Positions 52,901-63,456 of a stretch of 64,000 nt of DNA are shown here, piece by piece (position 1 is the stretch's first letter; every line of letters starts with the position of its first letter). Origin of the DNA: an uncultured delta proteobacterium (lineage in GTDB: Bacteria > Myxococcota_A > Polyangia > Polyangiales > Polyangiaceae); NCBI GenBank assembly GCA_963716725.1, contig CAVQUB010000021.1, positions 96,001 through 160,000 of the forward strand, written 5' to 3'. The notes beneath the pieces were generated by a model. The model was not told the DNA's origin and did not search any database. It saw only the letters and a program-made list of their open reading frames with translations. A program made the position numbers and the translations under genes.

Positions 52901-54012
52901 CCAGCGCCGCGTCGATCTGCGCCGAGAACTCTCCGATCAGCGGCGGCTCGCCAGCGCCGGCCATCGGGAAACGGTACTGCGCGAGCAGCTTGCCGGACTC
53001 GCGCCGCACCGGCAGCCACTCGATGTACTCGACAACCACCGTGATGGTCGCGCCGCTCGCAATGGTCGGCAGGTGCCCGCGCACCCAACCTTCGCCGGCC
53101 CATTCGAGCAACGCGGGGCCCTCGGGAGCGAGCTGCACCGATTCGCGGTGCGCGAGGGCGATCTTGCCCTCTTGCAGGTCTTCGTCACGACCCCAAGCAA
53201 AACGCGAGACGATGGCGTCCGGCGGCAGCGCCATGCGGAAGTCGCCGCGAACGCCGCTGCTCCCGCCGTTGAAATAGGTGGTGGTGACCCGGGTCTCGGC
53301 GATCTCGGGCTCGAGCTTCGCGCTCACGTCCAACGCACGAATGGTGAGCGGCGAACCCGGGTCGCCGGGCTTCGAACCGAGATTCTGCACCCCAGATTTC
53401 ACCGACCGCACGCCGCGGAGGTCCGGCCGCGCCCCAGGGAGCCGCGAGCCCGCCCGTCCAGTCGTCGAAGGCCTTCTCCGGGCGGACGCTGACGTTGGCG
53501 CCTTCGATCAAGGCGGACTCGCCCGCGCGCACCTTGTGCTCGCCGTTGCCGGCGCTCACGACAATCTCGTCGTTGGCAGCGTAAACCCGAGCAGGACCTT
53601 CGCGCCGGTCAAAGCCGACACGGGCAGCGCCGGGACGCACCTTCACGTCGCCGACGGAAATCTCGGCGCGAGCCCCGACCACCCCCTCGACGAACAGTCG
53701 GCCGCTCTCCAGGCTGATCTTCGCGTCGTCGACGCTGATCTTCGTCGAGCGGTCGATCAGCACCACCGTGCCGTCGTCGAGGCGGATGCGCGCTCGACCT
53801 TGTGCGTCGGTCTCGACGCGCTGCCCGGGTGCGATCCGTACGAGACCGCGCCGCTCCCCCTCGTTCACGTTCACGCCCGGATGAACCACCGACAGGTCGG
53901 CTACGGTCACGCCGCGTTGAATGGCTCTGGGCCGCGCGATGAATACGACGCCGGCAATGATGACGCCGAGCACGACGACGATCGCGAGCGTCCGCAGGAT
54001 CTTCTTAGCCAC
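49993..54012 (-). pseudogene. FecR-like + VIT + vWA + TonB_C-like + TPR protein (about 1340 aa), interrupted by two frameshifts; probably assembly errors
   Basis: ORFs 53185..54012, 52227..53411 and 49993..52671 are collinear with the upstream paralog. Shifts at the C run 53390-53393 and the G run 52698-52700. MIDAS motif DTSGS. Confidence 0.85.
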
Positions 54013-57000
54013 GGGTCACCTCCCCGGTGCCGAGATTGAAACGGATGGTGGGTGGACCGCCGCGCTCGAAGCGAACCGGCAGCTTGATGATCTTCTCGCT
54101 CTTGCCGAGCTCGTCGAACACGACCGTGAGCGTCAGCTCGGCACCGAGCCGCGCGGCGGCCTCGACGTCGCCCTTCTCGATCCGGATTTCCACCCACCGA
54201 GCCCCCTTCGAGGGCATGCGCGCCTGTGCGATGCCCAAGGTCACGTCCCCTTCGGACGCCGGCATCGCTGCACCGAGCGCGTTGGTGTAGAGCACGGGGT
54301 GCAGCTCGGGATGGGACCAGGTGAGCGTCACCCGCGCGCCTCGGCCCGTCTTCGCGCCCTCGGAAGCCAGCACACGTTCCGCGCGCGCGGCGAGATCCTC
54401 GGCCTCTTGTTCCCGCTTGCCTTCGCGGGCAGCCAGGCGTCCCCACGCGAGGAAGGTCGCGGCGAATGCCCGCGAAGTTGCGGCGGGGCCCGAATCGACA
54501 TCGGGGGCCCCGGCGCCGTGGCCCTTCTCGGTCCAACGCACGGCTGCTTCGACCTGGCCCTCGCCCTCGGCGGCCGCGGCCAGCAGGAGCGCGACGCTCG
54601 AGTCGTCAGGCGTGATCGTCGCCAACGTCTCGTATTGTCGACGCGCGTCGGCGAACCAACCGTGAGCTCGAAGTAGATCGCCGAGGCGGCGACGCGCCAC
54701 TGGATCGTCCGGCGCGAACTCCACGATCTCGCCGAAAGCGCGACGTGCGAGGCCCTCGTTCTCGGCCTTGCCCTTCGGCTCCTTCATCGACGCGGCGATG
54801 CGCAGGTAGAGTTCGCCAATGGAGGTGCGGACGTGCGCATCCGCATCGGGCCGCGCGCGCAGGCGCTCCGCGAAGTCCGCAGCTCCCGAGAAGTCCCCGG
54901 CATCCTCCAGCGCGTCGAGAAGACGAAGCGCCAGCGGGAAGTCGTCGGGCCACTCCCTCACGAGCACTCGCAACTTTGCCGCGCGCAGGCTCGGATCCTT
55001 GGTCTCGGACAGCAACTTCTCGAGCATGCCCGGGTCCATGCTCTTCAGCCCGAGCGCAGCGTGCAGCTCGCGCATCTGCTGCGCCGTCTTGATGCGAGCC
55101 ACAATGCCTCGGTAGAGCGAGTCGGCGGCGGTGGCGTCGTTCTGCATCAGCTTCCAGAGCCCGACGCGCATCTGCACGCTGCCGAGGGCGTCGAGCATCA
55201 GCGAGAGCAGGCGTCGTCGCTCGGTCCAGCTCGGCGCTTCACAGCCCCGAAGCGCCGTCTGATAGACGCCGAGCACACCGCCCGGGCTGCCCGCCATCTT
55301 CGAGAGACGCTCGCGCCACAGGGTCACCCGATCCGAGAGCGGGAGATCCGCCGCGGCGCTGCAGCGGATCACGAAGCGAGGGATCACGTCGAGCCCGACC
55401 ACGACGAAGGGAGCGTCGATCTTCTCGGGCTTGGTTCCCCCACCGCCGCCGGGCGAAAACATGATCGGGTAGCTGACGGTGACGATACCGCCTTCGGGCT
55501 GCGGGAAGCTGAGACCGGTGAACGCCGCAACGACGCAGGCGACCACGCCGGAGTCCGGAACGTCCGAATCCCCATTCCTGGCGTTCGCCACCTCACCCTG
55601 AGCGTTGATCACGAAGCGAACGGCGACGCGGCCCTCGAGGTTCGGGTTGCGTTGGAGCCCTTGCTCGTAACACAGGCGAAAACGTCCGAAGTTCTGCCGC
55701 ACGATGCGCTGCACGACCTCCGGCGGCAGCTTTCCGGTGACCTGAGTCGCGCCCATGCGCACCGACGGCACCGACGTGGCGTGAGCGCCGCCCAGGCGCC
55801 CGTGCCCGGAGCCGAAGCCTTGACCGGATCCAGTCCCAGCGCCTTTGCCGATGGTGCCGATCGAACCGAGTCCGATCCCTTCGCCACGACCGCCGCCACC
55901 TTCACCGATGCCGCTCAGACCGAGACCGCCCGCACCGGAAGCATCCCCGATCTGGTCGCCCCAAGTGTTGCCTTTCGCCGACTTCGTCTCGGGAGCCTCG
56001 CTGGGTTTGTCCTCCCCGGCCGCCGGCGCGCGTTCTGCCTTGGCGACGGGCGCGGCCGCCGTCGCGGCGGCCTCGGGCGCCGGCGCGGCCGGCGGCGATG
56101 CGGCCAGCGAGTCGTCTCTCCCCCAAGGCGCCGTTGGAGCGCTCGGATCCCCCCCCGCACCGGTGTTCAAGAGGCCGATCATCCCAAACTCGGAGCTGTC
56201 CTTCAGGGCCTGCTGACGGGCGATGTGAGGGTCCGCGTTGTCCCGGGGTCCTTCCACGCCGTAGCGCTTGGCCGAGGCGCTCGCGGGGCGCCCCATCGAT
56301 CCCTCTTCACCCTTGGCGCGGGTGCCAGTACCGCCTTCTTTGTTGTCGGACTTTGCGGTCTCCTCGGCCACTTCTTCCCGCTCGCGCTCACGCTCGAGGT
56401 CTTCCTCCGTCATGCGCTTGCGCCGCTCTTCGGCCAGCTCCCGCGCGGTTGGTACGTAGTAGGACGTGACCGGAGTGATGATGCCAAAGCGTGAGCCGAC
56501 GTCGACCATGGCGGCCCTGCCCGCGCGCTCGCGGAGCAACTCGCCGAGCCGTGCCTCGGCCCAGCGACGCCGAAGGTCACCCTGATCGTCGAGGGCCCGC
56601 GGATCGAGCGGCAGCTCTTTCTTGCCCTCCCGGGTCGTCACCGTGATCTTCCGGGGGGTCGCGCCTGCGGTGCGACCGACCACGATCACGGTCTCGTCCG
56701 CTACGAGCGCGCCCGAACCCCGGGGATAGATGCGCTCCACGCTCTCGCCGAGACTGATCTCGGTTCCGAGCCAGGCCGGCCGCTCGGCACGCTCGAGCAC
56801 TGCGAGACCCGCACGAGCCGCCGACGCCGCGTCGTCGAGTCGGCTCGCGAAGCCGCCGCTGGCGAGCCCCGCGAGCAACGCCATGTCGACGTCGCGCCCG
56901 ACGCCGAGCGAGAAGACCCGCGGCGGTCGCGGCAGCTTGCTCATCTTCTGCTCGAGATCCTTGAGGGTGATTTCGCCGACGGTGGGCAGACCGTCGCCGA

Positions 57001-58741
57001 TGTAGACCACGACTCCGCGACGCGCCGGATCGAGCTGGCTTGCCGCCAGCGTGAGCATGCCGCCGAGATCGGTGGCTCCGCCGCGAGACAGGCTGGCGAG
57101 CGCCGCGGAGTAGCGCTGACGCACGGCCGTGTCGATCTTCGCGAGCCCGGTCAGGTCCGGAAGCAGCGGCCGAAGCGATTCGGCGCCGGCCCACACCACG
57201 GCCCGGTCCTCGTCGCCCAGGTGACTGAGCAATCCCATGGCCGCCGCCCGCGCGAGGGCCATGCTCGACGCATCGTTGGCCGCCGACGCATCGACGACAA
57301 TGGCGAGATCGAGTCCGCCGGCTTGCACCGGCAGATCCGTCGCGCGCAAGGGGACGAGCACGTAGCCCACCTCGCCGATCGCGGTCTTGTTGGCTTCGGT
57401 GCGTGCGTCCGGCGCGAGCACTTCGAGATCCGGAGAGTGCTTGGCGTGATATGCGCCCGCAGCGCTCACTCCGTCGTCGAACAGCTCAACGGAAAGATCC
57501 GCGCGCGGAACGTAGTCTTGCGCGCGCACTATCACTTCGGTGCCCTGGCGTGTGCCGGCCATGCCGACCCGAACGTCCTTCGCTCGCGCCTTCGCGAGCT
57601 CCACCTTGATGGTCAGTTCTTCGATCACGGGCAGCGAAGCGTCAGTGCCCTCCGCTGCCATCGGATACACGTAGTGGCGCCGCTCCCCTCGCTTCCCGTT
57701 GCGCGGCAACCACTCGGTGTAGCGCACGACCACGCGCCGCGACTCGCCGGGGCCAATCGGGTACAGCCGCGCGCGATAAGCCCCGGGACCTTCCCACTCG
57801 AGCAAGGCGGGATCTTCGGTCGATCCGGCGTAGACGTTGGACTGATACTGCGCGGCCGCCGCTGCGCTCTCCTTGACTCGGCCCCACACCACCTCGCCGT
57901 CGCGATCGACACCAAAGCGATGGATAGAAGCGCCCTCGGGCGATCGGAAGCGGTAGATGCCTTCCACCGTGGCCGAGGTCGGGTTGAAGAAGCGTTGGTC
58001 CACCTCCGTCACCGCAAAGTCGCCGTCCACGCTGACCCGCACGTCGAGGCGCTGGATGGCGAGCGGAAAGCGCGGCGAGCCGACGTTGCCCGGCGGACGT
58101 GCGCCCACGGTGCCCACTCCGAAGGGGGCAGGAGTCGCCACTGGATCGGTGGTCGCGAGCCCGCCGGTCCAGTCCTCCCAGACCTTCACGGCCTCGAGGG
58201 TGGGAGCGCCGTCTCGCTTCGCGAGCAGTCGTTCCCCGGCACGCGCGCGCACGGTGTCACCGAGACGCACCTCTCCGTCGAGCACATAGGCCTCGGTGGT
58301 GCCGTCCGCGGACACGTCGAGGCTGGCGCGGACCTTGGCGAGCTGCAGCTTGCCGCTCGGCACCTCGATCTCCGTCGCGCGGCTCACGGGCGAGTCGACG
58401 AAGATCCGTCCGGACTCGAGCTTCACGCCGTCTGCGTAGACCACCAGCTCGGCCGGCCCGCGCACCAGGAGGGTGGCCCCGGCGTCCCGTCGCAGCCAGG
58501 CCAATCCTCCCGGTTGCACCTTCACCCGGGATCCATCGACAAGGCGCTCCCGTGGATAGGGATCGCGCTCTTTCTCGTCGGGCAGCGTGACGAGCACCGC
58601 GCGCCGAACGGTGCGGAGCTCGGCCCAAGTTTGGCTGCGCGGCGCCAGCGGACGTTCGCGGCCGCCGCAGGCAAAGGTGGTGACCACCAGCAGGAAGAAA
58701 CCAAACCAGACGCCTAGACGCCTGGCGATGTGTGGACGCAT
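54005..58741 (-). CDS. Lipoprotein: FecR-like + VIT + vWA + AgmX/PglI(GltG)-like TonB_C + TPR (about 1580 aa)
   Basis: TTFAC lipobox; VIT (AVTEVDQRFFNP..EGIYRF..DPALLEW..LYPI); vWA (IVVDAS, GGATDL, IGDG); IVRQNFGRFRLCYEQGL..FPQPEGGIVTVSYP; TPRs. Start 58741 or 58759. Confidence 0.9.
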   Translation of the reverse strand: MRPHIARRLGVWFGFFLLVVTTFACGGRERPLAPRSQTWAELRTVRRAVLVTLPDEKERDPYPRERLVDGSRVKVQPGGLAWLRRDAGATLLVRGPAELVVYADGVKLESGRIFVDSPVSRATEIEVPSGKLQLAKVRASLDVSADGTTEAYVLDGEVRLGDTVRARAGERLLAKRDGAPTLEAVKVWEDWTGGLATTDPVATPAPFGVGTVGARPPGNVGSPRFPLAIQRLDVRVSVDGDFAVTEVDQRFFNPTSATVEGIYRFRSPEGASIHRFGVDRDGEVVWGRVKESAAAAAQYQSNVYAGSTEDPALLEWEGPGAYRARLYPIGPGESRRVVVRYTEWLPRNGKRGERRHYVYPMAAEGTDASLPVIEELTIKVELAKARAKDVRVGMAGTRQGTEVIVRAQDYVPRADLSVELFDDGVSAAGAYHAKHSPDLEVLAPDARTEANKTAIGEVGYVLVPLRATDLPVQAGGLDLAIVVDASAANDASSMALARAAAMGLLSHLGDEDRAVVWAGAESLRPLLPDLTGLAKIDTAVRQRYSAALASLSRGGATDLGGMLTLAASQLDPARRGVVVYIGDGLPTVGEITLKDLEQKMSKLPRPPRVFSLGVGRDVDMALLAGLASGGFASRLDDAASAARAGLAVLERAERPAWLGTEISLGESVERIYPRGSGALVADETVIVVGRTAGATPRKITVTTREGKKELPLDPRALDDQGDLRRRWAEARLGELLRERAGRAAMVDVGSRFGIITPVTSYYVPTARELAEERRKRMTEEDLEREREREEVAEETAKSDNKEGGTGTRAKGEEGSMGRPASASAKRYGVEGPRDNADPHIARQQALKDSSEFGMIGLLNTGAGGDPSAPTAPWGRDDSLAASPPAAPAPEAAATAAAPVAKAERAPAAGEDKPSEAPETKSAKGNTWGDQIGDASGAGGLGLSGIGEGGGGRGEGIGLGSIGTIGKGAGTGSGQGFGSGHGRLGGAHATSVPSVRMGATQVTGKLPPEVVQRIVRQNFGRFRLCYEQGLQRNPNLEGRVAVRFVINAQGEVANARNGDSDVPDSGVVACVVAAFTGLSFPQPEGGIVTVSYPIMFSPGGGGGTKPEKIDAPFVVVGLDVIPRFVIRCSAAADLPLSDRVTLWRERLSKMAGSPGGVLGVYQTALRGCEAPSWTERRRLLSLMLDALGSVQMRVGLWKLMQNDATAADSLYRGIVARIKTAQQMRELHAALGLKSMDPGMLEKLLSETKDPSLRAAKLRVLVREWPDDFPLALRLLDALEDAGDFSGAADFAERLRARPDADAHVRTSIGELYLRIAASMKEPKGKAENEGLARRAFGEIVEFAPDDPVARRRLGDLLRAHGWFADARRQYETLATITPDDSSVALLLAAAAEGEGQVEAAVRWTEKGHGAGAPDVDSGPAATSRAFAATFLAWGRLAAREGKREQEAEDLAARAERVLASEGAKTGRGARVTLTWSHPELHPVLYTNALGAAMPASEGDVTLGIAQARMPSKGARWVEIRIEKGDVEAAARLGAELTLTVVFDELGKSEKIIKLPVRFERGGPPTIRFNLGTGEVTRG

Positions 58742-58934
58742 GCTGCGTTGCCAGACCATATCGCGCCTCCGATGTTCCCCGGGGGGGCGACTATACGCCC
58801 GGGGATGGGGAAGCCGACGCCGCATTCGATCAATCTGCCGTGGCTTGCCCCATCCATTCTCAGGGCTCTGACCCGCTGGCCCGCGATTGATTGGCTCTTC
58901 GCTGGGTCCTGGGACAATTCGGCCCGGCTGCCGC

Positions 58935-60284
58935 CTACTCCTTCGGCGGCCGCACGCCGTACTTCGTCGTCATCGGCGGCTGATCGGGCGGCGCTTCGAC
59001 GGCGTACTCGGCCACCGACGGTGGTTCGTCCCCTTGGGGCGGCGGCTCGGGCGGCGGTTCGACAGCGTATTCCTCGACGGACGGAGGCTCGCCGGGGAAG
59101 GGATCCGCGGTCGGCGCCGCGGGGGGCGGGCCCTGAGGCTTGTCGCCCGCGCAACCGATGCCAAAGGCGGCTAGCAACGCCGCCGGCGCCAGCGCGAGGG
59201 GCGCGTACCGACGCTTGCTCTTCACGAGTGATCGCGCGTCGAGGGTCGCGACGCGGTGATAGCAGAAGGGGTTCTCACTGCCACCTTCGCAGGTGCGCAT
59301 ACTGAAGCAGCCGCCTCGGCAGATGTCTGCGTGCTCGCAGGTCCGACAGAAGCCCGTGAGGCTGTCCGTGGAGAAGCTCCGGTTGTACGAGAACGCACCT
59401 TCGCGGTGCCAGATGTCGGCGAGCGCGTGCTCCGCCAGGCTGCCTTCGGTCTCCTGGGTCGCTTGGAGTGAGAGGCAACCCTTGACGCTGCCGTCGGACT
59501 GGATGCCGAGGTGACGGCATCCCGCGAAGCAGCCGACCCAGCACTCGACCGGCGTCGACCGATGGCGGCGCAGCGTGGACTCGTATTTGCCGTAGTAGCC
59601 GATGTTGTTGGCGATACGAATGTTGATCGGCGAGCGTTCGACCAAGCTGGCGAGGGCCGGGATCAGCTGGAGCAAGTCCTTGGGGTCGAGCTGTTCGGAG
59701 CGGTGCTCGAGCAGGTTGCCCATGGCCGCGCCGAGCTGCAGCTGCCAGACGTACACCTTGCCGGCCAAGAGCTCTTCGATGGCGTCGAGCTCCCGCACGT
59801 TGCGCTTCTGCAGAGTCGTGACCACGCCGACGGGCGGACCGGCAGCGTGACAAGCTTCGATCAGCGCCATCACCCGCTTGAACGAGCCTGGCAGGCCGCG
59901 GTGTCGATCGTGGGTGGCTTCGAGACCGTCGAGGCTCGCCGCGATACTGACCAGCCCCGCCTCTTTGGCACGGCGCGGCAGCTCTTTGTCGGCACGGGCG
60001 GCGTTGGTGATCATGTTCACGGCGATGCCGCGTCCGGCAGCTTCAGCTCCCACGGCCTCCCAGTGCTTGGACAGCGTGGGCTCGCCGCCCGAGAGCGTGA
60101 GGGTGCGACAGCCGAGATCTGCGAGCTCGTTCGCGATCTCGAGCAATCGCGGCCGACCGAGCTCGTCCGGCCGCGGGTTGCCCGCCCGCGATCCGCAGTG
60201 ACCGCAGCGCAGGTTGCAGGCCAGCGTCAGCTCCCAAGTGCAGCTCTTCGGCACGTACCCCAGGCCGTCCACGATCTCGCGCAT
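58935..60284 (-). CDS. Radical SAM/SPASM peptide maturase (splicease-like) with fused C-terminal lipoprotein-like Tyr-repeat tail
   Basis: WELTLACNLRCGHCGSRAG, SGGEP; SPASM GCFAG..GIQSDGSVKGC..CRTC..CRGGC..NPFC; about 95-aa tail. Confidence 0.9.
   Translation of the reverse strand: MREIVDGLGYVPKSCTWELTLACNLRCGHCGSRAGNPRPDELGRPRLLEIANELADLGCRTLTLSGGEPTLSKHWEAVGAEAAGRGIAVNMITNAARADKELPRRAKEAGLVSIAASLDGLEATHDRHRGLPGSFKRVMALIEACHAAGPPVGVVTTLQKRNVRELDAIEELLAGKVYVWQLQLGAAMGNLLEHRSEQLDPKDLLQLIPALASLVERSPINIRIANNIGYYGKYESTLRRHRSTPVECWVGCFAGCRHLGIQSDGSVKGCLSLQATQETEGSLAEHALADIWHREGAFSYNRSFSTDSLTGFCRTCEHADICRGGCFSMRTCEGGSENPFCYHRVATLDARSLVKSKRRYAPLALAPAALLAAFGIGCAGDKPQGPPPAAPTADPFPGEPPSVEEYAVEPPPEPPPQGDEPPSVAEYAVEAPPDQPPMTTKYGVRPPKE
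58941..59090 (-). repeat. Three imperfect peptide repeats EPPSVEEYAVEPP / EPPSVAEYAVEAPP / QPPMTTKYGVRPP
   Basis: Seen in the translation of 58935..60284. Confidence 0.85.
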
Positions 60285-60360
60285 CTCGTCGCCTCCTCGG
60301 CCTCGAGGCTAACGCCTTCCCGCGAGGCCCGAGCTGACCGAGGTCATGTCGACCGTCGGC

Positions 60361-61173
60361 TCAACGCCGCGGCTCGGCGCGCTTTCCGAGCACCTTCGCC
60401 ACGCCCATCGCCCGAAGCATTGGTCCCTCGAGACTCGGAATCAGCTGGCGCAGCGCCAAGAGTGGGCGCACGGGTCCCGCCGTCACGAGCACCTCACCCT
60501 TGCCCCGGATCACCTCGATCACCGCTTGGGCGACGGCATCCGGCGATACCTCTCGGAAGGCTGCCGGCGCCCGGAGCCCCGTGTCCGCCCACATGCCCGC
60601 ACCCGAGACGAAGCCGGGGCACACGACTCCGACATGAACCCCCGTCCCGTGCAACTCCACTTCGAGCGACGAGCTGAGACCCACGAGGCCGTGTTTGGTC
60701 GCGGCATAGACCGAGTTGTAAGGAGTCGCAGACTTGCCGGACATCGACGAGACGTTTACGATCACGCCGCTTCCACGGGCGATCATCGCCGGAAGCGACG
60801 CCCGCGTCAGCTCGATGGGCGCCACCAGGTTGATCTCGATCTGCGCGCGCACCTCGTCCTCGCTTTGATCGACCAACAGCTGGGTGACCTCGATCCCGGC
60901 GTTGTTGACCAGGATGTCGATGGCGGCCGCCTCCTTCGAGAGTCGTGCTCGATCCTCGGCCCGCGCGACGTCGGCCGAGACCACCTCGACCCGGACGCCC
61001 AGCGCGCGACACTTCTCGGCGACCTGATCGAGCTTCTCCCGGTCACGCGCCGCGAGCACGAGCGCGATGCCTTCGCGCGCCAGCCGCTCGGCAATGTGCA
61101 GGCCGAGCCCCCGTGACGCGCCTGTGACCAGCGCGCGCTGGCCTCTGAGATCCGCGGACATGCTCCGCCGCAT
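60361..61173 (-). CDS. Short-chain dehydrogenase/reductase (SDR)
   Basis: TGASRGLG, NNAG, SS and YAATK motifs; start 61173 or 61161. Confidence 0.95.
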   Translation of the reverse strand: MRRSMSADLRGQRALVTGASRGLGLHIAERLAREGIALVLAARDREKLDQVAEKCRALGVRVEVVSADVARAEDRARLSKEAAAIDILVNNAGIEVTQLLVDQSEDEVRAQIEINLVAPIELTRASLPAMIARGSGVIVNVSSMSGKSATPYNSVYAATKHGLVGLSSSLEVELHGTGVHVGVVCPGFVSGAGMWADTGLRAPAAFREVSPDAVAQAVIEVIRGKGEVLVTAGPVRPLLALRQLIPSLEGPMLRAMGVAKVLGKRAEPRR

Positions 61174-61248: not shown

Positions 61249-63456
61249 ATGCAGGACACCACTCGCCTCGTTCTATCGGTTTCGGCGGCGCTGACCAGCG
61301 CCGAAGAGCGGGACGTCGACCGGTCCATCGAGCTGGCGCTGCGGCAGAGCGCCGAGCTCACCGGTGCCGACCGCACCTACGTCTTCCTGCTCTCGGACTC
61401 GGGCACGCAGATCAGCAATACCCACGAGTGGTGCACGCCGGGCATCGAGCCGGCGCGCGACCAACTGCAGCGCTTGCCGCTCGACGCATTTCCCCTTGCG
61501 TTCCGCGAGTTGCTCGCCGATCGCGATCTGGTCGTGCCCAAGGTGCTCGAAGCCCCGCCGGGACCCGATCGGGAGGAGTGGATCCGAGAGGGCATCCGAT
61601 CGCTCTATTGCACCCCCCTGCGCATCCACGACCAGACCGTCGGGTTTCTCGGCTGCGACTGGGTTCATCGCGAGCAAGCCCTCGACGACCCCACTCGAGA
61701 GCTGATCCGACTCACGACGCTGTTGGTCGCCACCGCTGTGACGCGGCGGCGAGCGATGCGCCGACTCGAATACAAGAACGACTTCGAGGCGCTCGTGCTG
61801 CGGATCGCCTCGGAGTTCATCAACCTGCGTGGTGAGCCGATCCGCGCGGCGGTCCACGAGGCTGTCGCCGACATCGCGAAGTTCGGCGAGTTCGAAGGCG
61901 CGTACCTGTTTCGCTTCCGGGACGATGGACGAGCGCTGCCGGAGTACCTGTGGCGGTCGCCGCCCATCTCGATGCCGGGTCCAGAGCTGGTGAACCAGCC
62001 CGATCCAGGGCGATTTCGCTGGTGGCGCGACCGCATGCGCGCTGGTCGGACCCTCACGCTCAGGAGCCTCGCCGACATCCCTCCCGAGCAGGTCGAGATC
62101 CGGAAGGTCCTCGCCGAACACGGCGTCGCGGCGGCCATCGACCTTCCGATCAGAATCGGTGGAGAAGTCTGGGGGTTCGTCGGATTCGTCTCCGCTCGCA
62201 GCCCGCGGCGATTCGACGCCGACGAGGTCCAGTTGCTCGAGCTGGCCGCCCAGACCCTGGCCGGAGGCATCGGCCGCGCTGAGGCCAATCGCGCCGAGAG
62301 CGAGCTCGCGGCGCAGCTGCTGCAGACGCAGAAGATGGACGCCGTCGGGCACCTGGCCGGAGGTGTCGCGCACGACTTCAACAACCTGCTCGTGGTCATC
62401 ACGCTTTCGCTGCACGCCGCCCGCCGTTCTCTCGGAATGAACCAGGGACAGACCGAGCAGGCGTTGGACGAGATCCAGAAGGCAGCGACCCGGGCGACCA
62501 AGCTCACCAAGCAGCTGCTCACGCTCGTTCGTCAGGCTCCGACCAGCGTGACCGTCCTTGATCTCAACGCCACGGTCGAGGAAGTGCTCTCGCTCGTCCG
62601 CCGGGTCCTGCCCAAGTCGGTCAGCGTGCGCTTCGCACCCGCAGCGCAATCGTTGCCCGTCAAGGCCGACGCGACCGAGATCGAACTCTGCCTCCTGAAC
62701 CTGTGCATGAACGCGCGCGATGCGATGCCGGAGGGCGGCGAGATCACGCTGAGCACCCGTCGGGTGGTCTTGACGCCGGAGGCCGGGCTTCCGCCTTGGT
62801 CCCGGCCTGGGCCTCACGTCTTGCTGGAGGTCAATGACACCGGCCACGGCATGGACGGCGAGACGGTTCGACGCTCCTTCGACCCATTCTTCACCACCAA
62901 GGAGCCGGACAAAGGCACCGGGTTGGGGCTGGCGGCGGTCTGGAACATCGTGAAAGGACATGGCGGCGTCGTGCGCGTCGAGAGCGAGCCGGGCGCCGGC
63001 AGCACCTTCTTGATCTACCTGCCCGAGGTCACCTCCGCCGCCGACGCCCTCCCTCCGAGCTCACCGGACGCTTCCCCGGGCGGGCACGAGACGGTGCTGC
63101 TCGCGGAGGACGACGAGATGGTGCGGCACAACGTCTCCGGCGTACTGCGCGGGGCGGGCTACCGGGTGCTCGAAGCGAAGGACGGTCAAGACGCCGTTGG
63201 TCTGCACTCCCGCAACGTGGGCAGCATCGATCTGATCGTGGTCGATGCGGTGATGCCGAGGAAGAGCGGCCTGCAAGTGTATCGCGAGATCTCCGCGCGC
63301 GACGCGAGAGTTCGAGTCTTGTTCACCAGCGGCTACAGCCGCGACGTATTCCCCGAAGAGTTCTTCGCCTCCGGCAAGCACGATCTGATCGCCAAGCCGT
63401 ACTCACCCGAGGCGTTGCTCGCCGCCGTTCGCGCTGCGCTGACACGCGCGGGTTGA
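61249..63456 (+). CDS. Hybrid sensor histidine kinase (GAF-GAF-HisKA-HATPase-REC)
   Basis: Two GAF-like domains; AHDFNNLL, NLCMNARDAM, DTGHGM, FTTK..GTGLGL; REC LAEDD..D..KP. Confidence 0.95.
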   Translation: MQDTTRLVLSVSAALTSAEERDVDRSIELALRQSAELTGADRTYVFLLSDSGTQISNTHEWCTPGIEPARDQLQRLPLDAFPLAFRELLADRDLVVPKVLEAPPGPDREEWIREGIRSLYCTPLRIHDQTVGFLGCDWVHREQALDDPTRELIRLTTLLVATAVTRRRAMRRLEYKNDFEALVLRIASEFINLRGEPIRAAVHEAVADIAKFGEFEGAYLFRFRDDGRALPEYLWRSPPISMPGPELVNQPDPGRFRWWRDRMRAGRTLTLRSLADIPPEQVEIRKVLAEHGVAAAIDLPIRIGGEVWGFVGFVSARSPRRFDADEVQLLELAAQTLAGGIGRAEANRAESELAAQLLQTQKMDAVGHLAGGVAHDFNNLLVVITLSLHAARRSLGMNQGQTEQALDEIQKAATRATKLTKQLLTLVRQAPTSVTVLDLNATVEEVLSLVRRVLPKSVSVRFAPAAQSLPVKADATEIELCLLNLCMNARDAMPEGGEITLSTRRVVLTPEAGLPPWSRPGPHVLLEVNDTGHGMDGETVRRSFDPFFTTKEPDKGTGLGLAAVWNIVKGHGGVVRVESEPGAGSTFLIYLPEVTSAADALPPSSPDASPGGHETVLLAEDDEMVRHNVSGVLRGAGYRVLEAKDGQDAVGLHSRNVGSIDLIVVDAVMPRKSGLQVYREISARDARVRVLFTSGYSRDVFPEEFFASGKHDLIAKPYSPEALLAAVRAALTRAG

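Follow-up and report, generated by a model that had tools for sequence, protein, structure and literature searches.

This locus raises the question whether an enzyme and the peptide that it modifies can be made as one polypeptide. In a stretch of 64,000 nucleotides from an uncultured member of the Polyangiaceae (assembly GCA_963716725.1, contig CAVQUB010000021.1, positions 96,001 to 160,000), called here the window, the gene at 58935..60284 on the minus strand encodes a radical S-adenosylmethionine (SAM)/SPASM enzyme that runs on into a lipoprotein-signal-like segment and a Pro-rich tail with three Tyr-centred motifs. The reading that we favour, with a probability of about 55%, is a one-polypeptide system resembling those of RiPPs (peptides made on the ribosome and modified after translation), with the enzyme and its own substrate on the same chain.

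The open reading frame (ORF) list of the window gives the gene as a single frame of 449 residues plus stop, with an ATG start. A ribosome-binding site, GAGGAGG, can be read 7 nt 5' of the ATG (60292..60298; this and all further features of the gene are on the minus strand). Full-length homologs cover the whole enzyme-signal-tail fusion, namely P0001 (96%), L046 and L048 (85-86%), where P stands for a protein of the homolog search and L for a genome locus. The radical SAM/SPASM domain comprises residues 1-348 (59241..60284) according to Pfam, NCBIfam, the AlphaFold2 (AF2) model and fold matches in the PDB, with Pfam Radical_SAM at residues 18-171 and SPASM at residues 252-317. The N-terminal signature, WELTLACNLRCGHCGSRAG (residues 17-35), holds the CxxxCxxC radical SAM cluster motif (C23, C27 and C30; 60195..60218), and the SPASM-pattern segment reads GCFAGCRHLGIQSDGSVKGCLSL (residues 251-273). 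The SPASM auxiliary-cluster cysteines lie within residues 248-341 (59262..59543) and are C252, C270, C313, C316, C322, C326, C332 and C341. In 31 aligned sequences of the clade to which the window protein belongs (clade A, below), the Fe-S ligand cysteines, CxxxCxxC and complete SPASM set alike, are all invariant. After the last of them, C341 in NPFCYHR (residues 338-344), the frame stays open to residue 449. The motifs quoted in an earlier note made from the sequence, and the open frame past NPFCYHR, are all present in the translation where that note had placed them.

Beyond the enzyme, residues 354-378 (VKSKRRYAPLALAPAALLAAFGIG-C; 59151..59225) have, by their sequence and their conservation in homologs, the build of a lipoprotein signal: a basic n-region KSKRR, an uncharged h-region of 18 residues, YAPLALAPAALLAAFGIG, and Cys378 (codon 59151-59153) in a G-I-G-C context. 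The part after the Cys, residues 379-449 (58938..59150), is rich in Pro and acidic residues, as is reflected in the charge of the family tails, and is predicted to be disordered, with a predicted local distance difference test (pLDDT) value below 50 in the AF2 model for residues 379-429 and 435-449, compared with 80-96 in the core of the enzyme. It contains motif 1, SVEEYAV (residues 402-408; 59061..59081), motif 2, SVAEYAV (residues 423-429; 58998..59018), and motif 3, MTTKYGV (residues 438-444; 58953..58973), the last followed by RPP.

We then asked how widely this architecture occurs. A search of 5.8 billion protein clusters gave 8000 candidates that were scored, and the best 120 listed, together with the window protein, made a set of 121 proteins. 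The end of the enzyme domain was set by hidden Markov model (HMM), and a tail was counted when at least 50 residues extended beyond the SPASM domain. Such a tail was found in 79 of the 121 proteins and at 31 of the 47 genome loci fetched, from many genera; among these 47, at least three pairs (L009/L046, L011/L062 and L012/L056) look like one record present twice. A hydrophobic stretch followed by Cys was present at 30 of the 31 tailed loci, 29 of which also had at least one YG. The records with fused homologs are Polyangiaceae, Myxococcales, Myxococcota or 'Deltaproteobacteria' metagenome-assembled genomes (MAGs), and of 401 genomes sampled evenly from the phylum Myxococcota, 130 have a fused or unfused relative of the enzyme at E <= 1e-60.

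The only circumstance that would speak for an artefact, in which a lost stop, a frameshift or a mis-assembly had joined a radical SAM gene to a downstream lipoprotein gene, is the draft state of the source genome (35 contigs, 84% complete). Against this stand the recurrence of the architecture in the protein clusters and loci just given, the invariance of the junction residues 341-348 throughout clade A, and the codon-position GC, which runs on across the junction: at codon position 3 it is 0.83 in the tail compared with 0.85 in the enzyme part, and the tail is therefore coding in this frame. We give the artefact next to no credence; the enzyme-tail fusion is genuine, with virtual certainty.

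The tree was built from 126 enzyme domains, after dropping two N-terminally truncated rows and adding seven rows of the L002 type (the paralog described below) as outgroup. The window protein falls in a fused clade A of 60 rows (Shimodaira-Hasegawa-like approximate likelihood ratio test, SH-aLRT, 100), a fused Cys-rich clade B comprises 15 rows (SH-aLRT 100), and both join at a support of 88. Clades A and B are fused throughout, and by this pattern the fusion is ancient and has been retained. The fused proteins P0061 and P0066 were placed among unfused relatives. One copy of the fused gene, in a Polyangiaceae MAG (L055:6880-7695), is possibly frameshifted or broken, one frame matching residues 1-272 only (HMM end 274/356).

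If the tail were the substrate of the enzyme, one would look for the conserved residues at the sites of modification. At least one YG is present in 78 of the 79 tails, and 339 YG were observed after the Cys, compared with 55.9 expected when each tail was shuffled. The residue that follows a tail Tyr (n = 481) is Gly in 339 cases (70%), Ala in 47 and Tyr in 40, the latter being the first Tyr of YYG; position Y+2 holds Ile, Val, Met or Leu and position Y+3 holds Pro in 208 cases. Among the 31 clade-A sequences, Y406 of motif 1 and Y442-G443 of motif 3 are the only invariant residues after the Cys; Y427 of motif 2 and P447 are conserved in at least 90%, and motif 3 fits the family consensus x-Y-G-[IVML]-P. 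The earlier note had proposed to test whether signal-like segments with YG or YA tails recur and whether the Tyr is the conserved residue; the first is so in 78 of the 79 fused homologs, and these conservation figures bear out the second. The window tail itself has one YG and two YA. YA and YG interchange in close relatives, P0001 having SVDKYGI where the window has SVEEYAV in a tail that differs by an insertion, and P0047 is the sole member of the family with YA only. A complex prediction between the enzyme domain (residues 1-352) and the tail (residues 379-449), run without controls, gave a score of 0.01 and a mark of 0.32 and counts neither way.

The tails of clade B (L016, L024, L031, L032 and L037; P0064-P0067, P0111 and P0115) are longer, of about 150-290 residues, and follow the same transmembrane (TM) plus Cys unit. 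In them, CCxC(D/E)YG(V/I)(I/L/P)P...CC repeats are mixed with plain (D/E)YG(V/I/M)P repeats, a pattern that suggests disulfide- or thioether-stabilised modules around YG sites.

The unit between enzyme and tail is as constant as the motifs. Under a strict rule, which requires two or more Lys or Arg ahead of 14 uncharged, mainly hydrophobic residues and a closing Cys, it was found in 74 of the 79 tails, and under a relaxed rule in 78; a first, cruder rule, based on a hydrophobic window of 19 residues, had caught 56 and was replaced by these lipoprotein-style rules. Position -1 of the Cys is occupied by Gly (63), Ala (7), Ser (3) or Leu (1), i.e. by Gly, Ala or Ser in 73 of the 74 strict-rule tails. 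Across the family tails, the uncharged stretch has a median length of 18 residues (range 13-23) and the Cys occurs 24-32 residues from where the tail begins, while the net charge has a median of +4 in the n-region and of -22.5 after the Cys, where it is never positive. This asymmetry is, as judged from sequence, that expected for an insertion with the N-terminal side inside and the C-terminal side outside. In clade A, C378 is invariant together with Y360, P362, P367 and A368. The AF2 model, read with DSSP, predicts one continuous helix over residues 342-373 (59166..59261), which starts at the invariant end of the SPASM part (CYHRVATL), spans the basic stretch and reaches into the hydrophobic segment, with a pLDDT of about 78 falling to about 52. 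The genes lspA and lgt were both found above cut-offs in the source genome.

This unit can also be read as the start of a second product. From an in-frame GTG at residue 354, translation would yield a 96-residue prolipoprotein, MKSKRR...C, with all the features of a classic lipoprotein signal (basic n-region, 18-residue h-region and GIGC), and this would be the true precursor, modified in trans, the fusion being incidental. Yet GTG354 lacks a preceding Shine-Dalgarno sequence, the letters upstream of it being CGCGCGATCACTC, and residue 354 is not conserved, with V, A, R, S or another residue in the homologs. Moreover, a stop between both parts occurs in none of the 79 fused proteins, and a search among proteins of 52-168 residues yielded no standalone tail homolog, its only hit, P0241, being a fragment of the same protein. 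We consider internal initiation very improbable.

Separate genes with the same module do occur beside unfused relatives of the enzyme. The source genome has a paralog, L002 (contig C8, ~228.6-230.0 kb), a radical SAM/SPASM protein of 385 residues (L002:1471-2628, plus strand) that scores 500 bits on TIGR04103, below the cut-off of 725. It is preceded by a gene for 84 residues (L002:1220-1474, plus strand), whose stop overlaps the ATG of the enzyme and whose product has, in this order, a Zn-ribbon, a basic RRR, a TM helix and GIGC, with AYGMPP after it. Two such small genes are present at L060 and three at L061, and at L013, L014 and L059 proteins with a helix, TM segment, GC and YG adjoin unfused close relatives of the window enzyme. 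All these two-gene systems share with the window a basic stretch, a TM helix, a small residue followed by Cys, and YG in an acidic Pro-rich tail. They differ in that the module has its own gene and stands behind a small cytoplasmic domain, either Zn-ribbon or helix, whose place is taken in the window by the enzyme.

The small proteins at L013:2606-3535 (minus strand) and L014:973-1470 (plus strand) lie tail-to-tail with the unfused relatives; their helix is N-terminal, and they have 'acidic double-disulfide repeats'. The model NF033662, with a cut-off of 41 bits, gives 45.7 bits for the L014 protein, which exceeds the cut-off, and 36.6 bits, under it, for the one of the two L013 proteins that was scanned. 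At L017:1-258 (minus strand), where the ORF runs off the contig, and at L021:1259-1432 (minus strand), Gly/Ser/Pro-rich AMYGG(M/T) repeats are encoded just upstream of, and divergent from, unfused radical SAM/SPASM relatives; these may be another type of precursor with MYG sites.

Around the fused genes, no comparable partner was seen. Apart from the gene's own frames, every ORF cluster within 6 kb on each side is confined to at most 4 of the 11 clade-A loci compared, a count of shared ORFs and not of matches to Nif11 or NHLP models. The view of the earlier note that no precursor or partner gene is visible nearby thus extends to the clade, none being conserved at these loci, and by its sequence context the gene appears to be self-contained. 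The tail is probably the substrate of the enzyme, as inferred from conservation and the two-gene versions, because its motif resembles the published splicease site, because the module in separate genes adjoins unfused paralogs, and because neighbouring genes are not conserved and a standalone tail homolog was not found.

The same observations bear on a role of the tail that involves no modification. The segment could be a membrane anchor followed by a disordered extracytoplasmic spacer, which would tether the enzyme to the inner membrane while its substrate is encoded elsewhere, the YG serving another purpose, for instance binding or structure. The long helix and the disordered, undocked tail of the AF2 model would suit such an anchor, as would an h-region that is unusually conserved for a signal peptide, as in an interaction helix, and the connection of domain and tail is known from sequence alone. 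A spacer, however, would not hold Tyr-Gly invariant amid changing surroundings, the TM, Cys and YG module in small genes beside unfused paralogs is the pattern of a substrate, and the neighbourhood has no conserved gene that could encode a different one. We regard the anchor as improbable and retain the tail as the presumed substrate.

What the enzyme would do to the tail depends on its class. In the NCBIfam scan, TIGR04103, an equivalog model that we take to be the PlpX family, is the top model with 246.3 bits (residues 15-353; cut-off 725), followed by TIGR03913 with 244.1 bits (cut-off 591.75), both within residues 9-353, and by TIGR04133, with the short name rSAM_w_lipo, with 127.8 bits (cut-off 425). 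The first two score about twice as high as the next models, and none of the 25 NCBIfam models shown for the window enzyme reached its cut-off. TIGR04103 and TIGR03913 also rank first for all nine relatives and paralogs scanned, fused and unfused. The best structural matches of the AF2 model are the RiPP maturases SkfB, PqqE, SuiB, CteB and anSME; the PDB sequence search, with SkfB as its best hit, returned no splicease structure. ESM Atlas matches were generic radical SAM clusters only, and the relatives of paralog L002 are named 'radical SAM' or 'SPASM' only, plus one with a name derived from TIGR03913 (P0137, 65% identical to L002). In the part of its text available, an ACS Catal. review links PlpX with InterPro IPR026482. 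The three best models are exactly those that the earlier note had named for an HMM search, but its statement that the pattern matches the PlpX-type splicease clade does not hold in that form: the score is far under the cut-off, TIGR03913 scores equally and the enzyme forms a separate clade. Because both top scores lie far below their cut-offs, the window enzyme is best described, from its sequence, as a peptide-modifying radical SAM/SPASM enzyme that is splicease-like, of a separate clade and not a member of TIGR04103.

Published splicease sites are XYG in general, with MYG and LYG in RcsA/RasA (PMC11414181, PMC11626197, in the portions used), and the splice tag of PlpA2 is given as ...PGYGLPI (PMC10533398, Table 1). 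By homology and motif, the most likely chemistry in the window would be a splicease-type excision of tyramine, to which we assign slightly less than even odds. A different Tyr-centred chemistry on the same substrate, for example beta-hydroxylation, epimerisation or crosslinking through C-C or C-O bonds, or thioethers to the Cys of clade B, is unlikely in our estimate. In its favour, the enzyme is under every family cut-off and in a clade of its own, TIGR03913 and TIGR04103 score alike, the subclade of the window has YA in place of YG, the YG of clade B stand within CCxCDYGxPPPxCC repeats, and the nearest solved folds include enzymes that form thioethers or crosslinks (SkfB, CteB and SuiB). On the other side, splicease sites in the literature have the form x-Y-G-[IVML]-P, no side chain besides Tyr is both conserved and of evident function, and L002, with a similar YG precursor, reaches 500 bits on the splicease model. 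Clade-A tails have no Cys after the lipobox (CC = 0), and a thioether is therefore impossible in them.

With tyramine excision as the presumed chemistry, the favoured course of events would be as follows. The N-terminal radical SAM/SPASM domain, which contains three Fe-S sites and lacks an N-terminal signal, would stay in the cytoplasm. There it would modify the Tyr at each x-Y-(G/A)-V of the disordered tail, either within the same chain or across to an adjacent copy. The basic and hydrophobic segment (residues 354-377) would then insert with its N-terminal side in and its C-terminal side out, and the acidic tail would end up outside; export of the tail is likely on sequence grounds. Cys378 might further be diacylglycerylated by Lgt and cleaved by LspA, which would release a lipid-anchored modified peptide and leave a spent enzyme; for this processing the lipobox context makes a tentative case, and we put it somewhat below tyramine excision. 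The enzyme would in effect replace the leader peptide. In the published net splicease reaction, as far as the source text used here describes it, the Gly takes no chemical part, and because of this an Ala at its position is conceivable for a co-evolved enzyme. The complete sequence of events, a single-turnover one-gene RiPP factory in which the enzyme splices tyramine from its own tail in the cytoplasm, the helix threads the tail across the membrane, Lgt attaches lipid to Cys378 and LspA cleaves at the G377/C378 junction with the enzyme as leader, is a speculative and, taken as a whole, unlikely combination.

Several observations weigh against the reading of a self-modifying enzyme with an exported, lipidated tail. 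In classical lipoproteins, the lipobox Cys stands within roughly the first 15-35 residues; Cys378 is outside this range, 378 residues in and behind a folded Fe-S domain, an arrangement for which we found no precedent. The h-region, with its invariant Y360, P362, P367 and A368, is more conserved than usual signal peptides, which hints at another role; by analogy with the activating helices fused to spliceases by the Piel group in the portion of PMC11414181 used here, it may for example be an enzyme-binding helix. With a cytoplasmic enzyme and a tail that is predicted outside, modification has to come before export. Two of the three window motifs are YA, P0047 has YA only, and we found no evidence that spliceases use YA. 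The enzyme is far under the curated cut-offs (246 vs 725 and 244 vs 592), the label 'splicease' is drawn from HMM rank and substrate motif, and TIGR03913 scores equally. In clade B, a YG within Cys-rich CCxCDYG repeats would also suit thioether chemistry. A weak point on the same side is that the tail of the single-chain AF2 model is disordered and undocked, a prediction uninformative on binding.

Compared with the known spliceases (PlpX, PcpX, RhaX, RcsX and RasX), the window enzyme is likewise a radical SAM/SPASM peptide maturase, with TIGR04103 as its best model, and its presumed target is likewise x-Y-G followed by a hydrophobic residue and Pro. It differs in its score (246 bits vs 725), its separate clade and its two YA sites out of three, and in that the substrate is on the same polypeptide and not in a precursor gene of Nif11 or NHLP type, with a TM/lipobox unit between enzyme and core. 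Unlike type I spliceases, it has no conserved separate precursor or PlpY-like partner among the ORFs shared at clade-A loci. The retrieved text of PMC11414181 describes non-cyanobacterial splicease types without a Y protein and 'binary' types, which resemble the window in the lack of a separate RiPP recognition element (RRE) or Y protein; in the same text, natural systems have two or three components, and fusions of X with a leader are engineered. The PMC10533398 text, as available, cites 27 characterised or 939 predicted splicease systems. In the literature searched, with supplements and the 939-system survey outside its scope, we found neither a natural fusion of a splicease to its substrate nor a spliceotide precursor with a lipobox. 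As for the other two models, TIGR04133 has a short name that suggests a lipoprotein as partner, and TIGR03913 (GDL motif peptide-associated radical SAM/SPASM maturase) differs from the window, in whose tail no GDL motif was seen.

RiPP precursors with lipoprotein signals have been shown experimentally in 2026 for the DAG-RiPPs (DybA/DybH and NedABC), which are made by MNIO enzymes (PMC13056109, in the part used). As proposed for the window, a cytoplasmic maturase acts first, followed by Lgt and LspA, and the signal doubles as a removable 'leader'. Putative counterparts of all the parts of the DAG-RiPP signal, n-region, h-region and lipobox Cys, can be read in the window protein, where the Cys is invariant. 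In contrast to the window, DAG-RiPPs have MNIO enzymes, separate precursors and N-terminal signals; the window signal is internal, behind an enzyme of 353 residues, and its lipidation is putative. The terms 'radical SAM', 'rSAM', 'splice' and 'fused' have no occurrence in the main text of PMC13056109, and the DAG-RiPP mining, as described in the part used, addressed neighbouring ORFs of 50-160 residues with N-terminal signals. Mining by short neighbouring precursors or by N-terminal signals would by design miss the fused family. The borosins (OphMA-type; PMC7878506, in the part used) have a modifying enzyme and a C-terminal core on one polypeptide, as the window does, and modify themselves; their enzyme is a SAM-dependent alpha-N-methyltransferase, they have no membrane or lipobox segment and they were first found in fungi, which makes the analogy one of architecture only. 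The one-gene design of enzyme and substrate, which we did not find described for this enzyme class, joins features of spliceotides, DAG-RiPPs and borosins.

If this is true, a single protein would combine the installation of ketoamides or beta-amino acids, RiPP lipidation by the lipoprotein pathway and the fusion of enzyme and core, and the housekeeping lipoprotein pathway would both remove the leader and export the peptide. What results would be an acidic, Pro-rich peptide, triacylated and bearing alpha-ketoamide warheads, on the envelope of the myxobacterium, where it might for instance inhibit proteases from its anchor at the surface, while the used enzyme would remain in the inner membrane; the precursors with Zn-ribbon, TM, Cys and YG would be a two-gene form of the same logic. 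The gene would also offer a minimal one-gene route to peptide ketoamides, of use in protein engineering, a direct test of Lgt and LspA on a lipobox far inside a protein, a natural experiment on the acceptance of Tyr-Ala by spliceases, and a hint that many Myxococcota carry modified lipopeptides on their envelope.

The genes next to the fusion in the window are shared with its closest relatives only, the synteny of a short-chain dehydrogenase/reductase (SDR), a VIT-VWA protein and a kinase being restricted to L046 and L048, of about 85% identity. The SDR genes at 60361-61173 of the window (minus strand) and at L003:2630-3445 (minus strand) lie directly upstream of, and on the same strand as, the fused gene and the unfused paralog L003, respectively. 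A conserved partnership of the SDR was rejected because it is syntenic in L046 and L048 only, no neighbour is present at more than 4 of the 11 loci, and it is not kept at distant fused loci; a role in reducing the ketoamide would be pure speculation. A protein of 1606 residues with VIT, VWA and TPR domains (54005-58825, minus strand) starts 110 nt downstream of the radical SAM gene on the same strand; its N-terminal hydrophobic stretch ends in a lipobox-like FACGG, and in L046 it is about 5.7 kb from the radical SAM gene. Divergent from the SDR/radical SAM pair, a hybrid histidine kinase (61249-63456, plus strand; two to three GAF domains, HisKA, HATPase_c and receiver) has syntenic counterparts in L046 and L048 and a partial 40% match in L054.

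The model NF058595, a 'lipo-invert putative C-terminal anchoring domain', matched the tail of the window protein with 15.7 bits (E = 0.014) against a cut-off of 37. This match was rejected as non-specific because sub-cut-off matches occur in all 14 control genomes and at 68 places in the source genome. The best match in the source genome to this model, also sub-cut-off, is a small Pro/Lys/Glu-rich lipoprotein (L038/L005; contig C5, ~509.7-511.4 kb), which has a signal ending in LGIAC and no YG and is encoded directly upstream of a different, non-splicease-like radical SAM gene.

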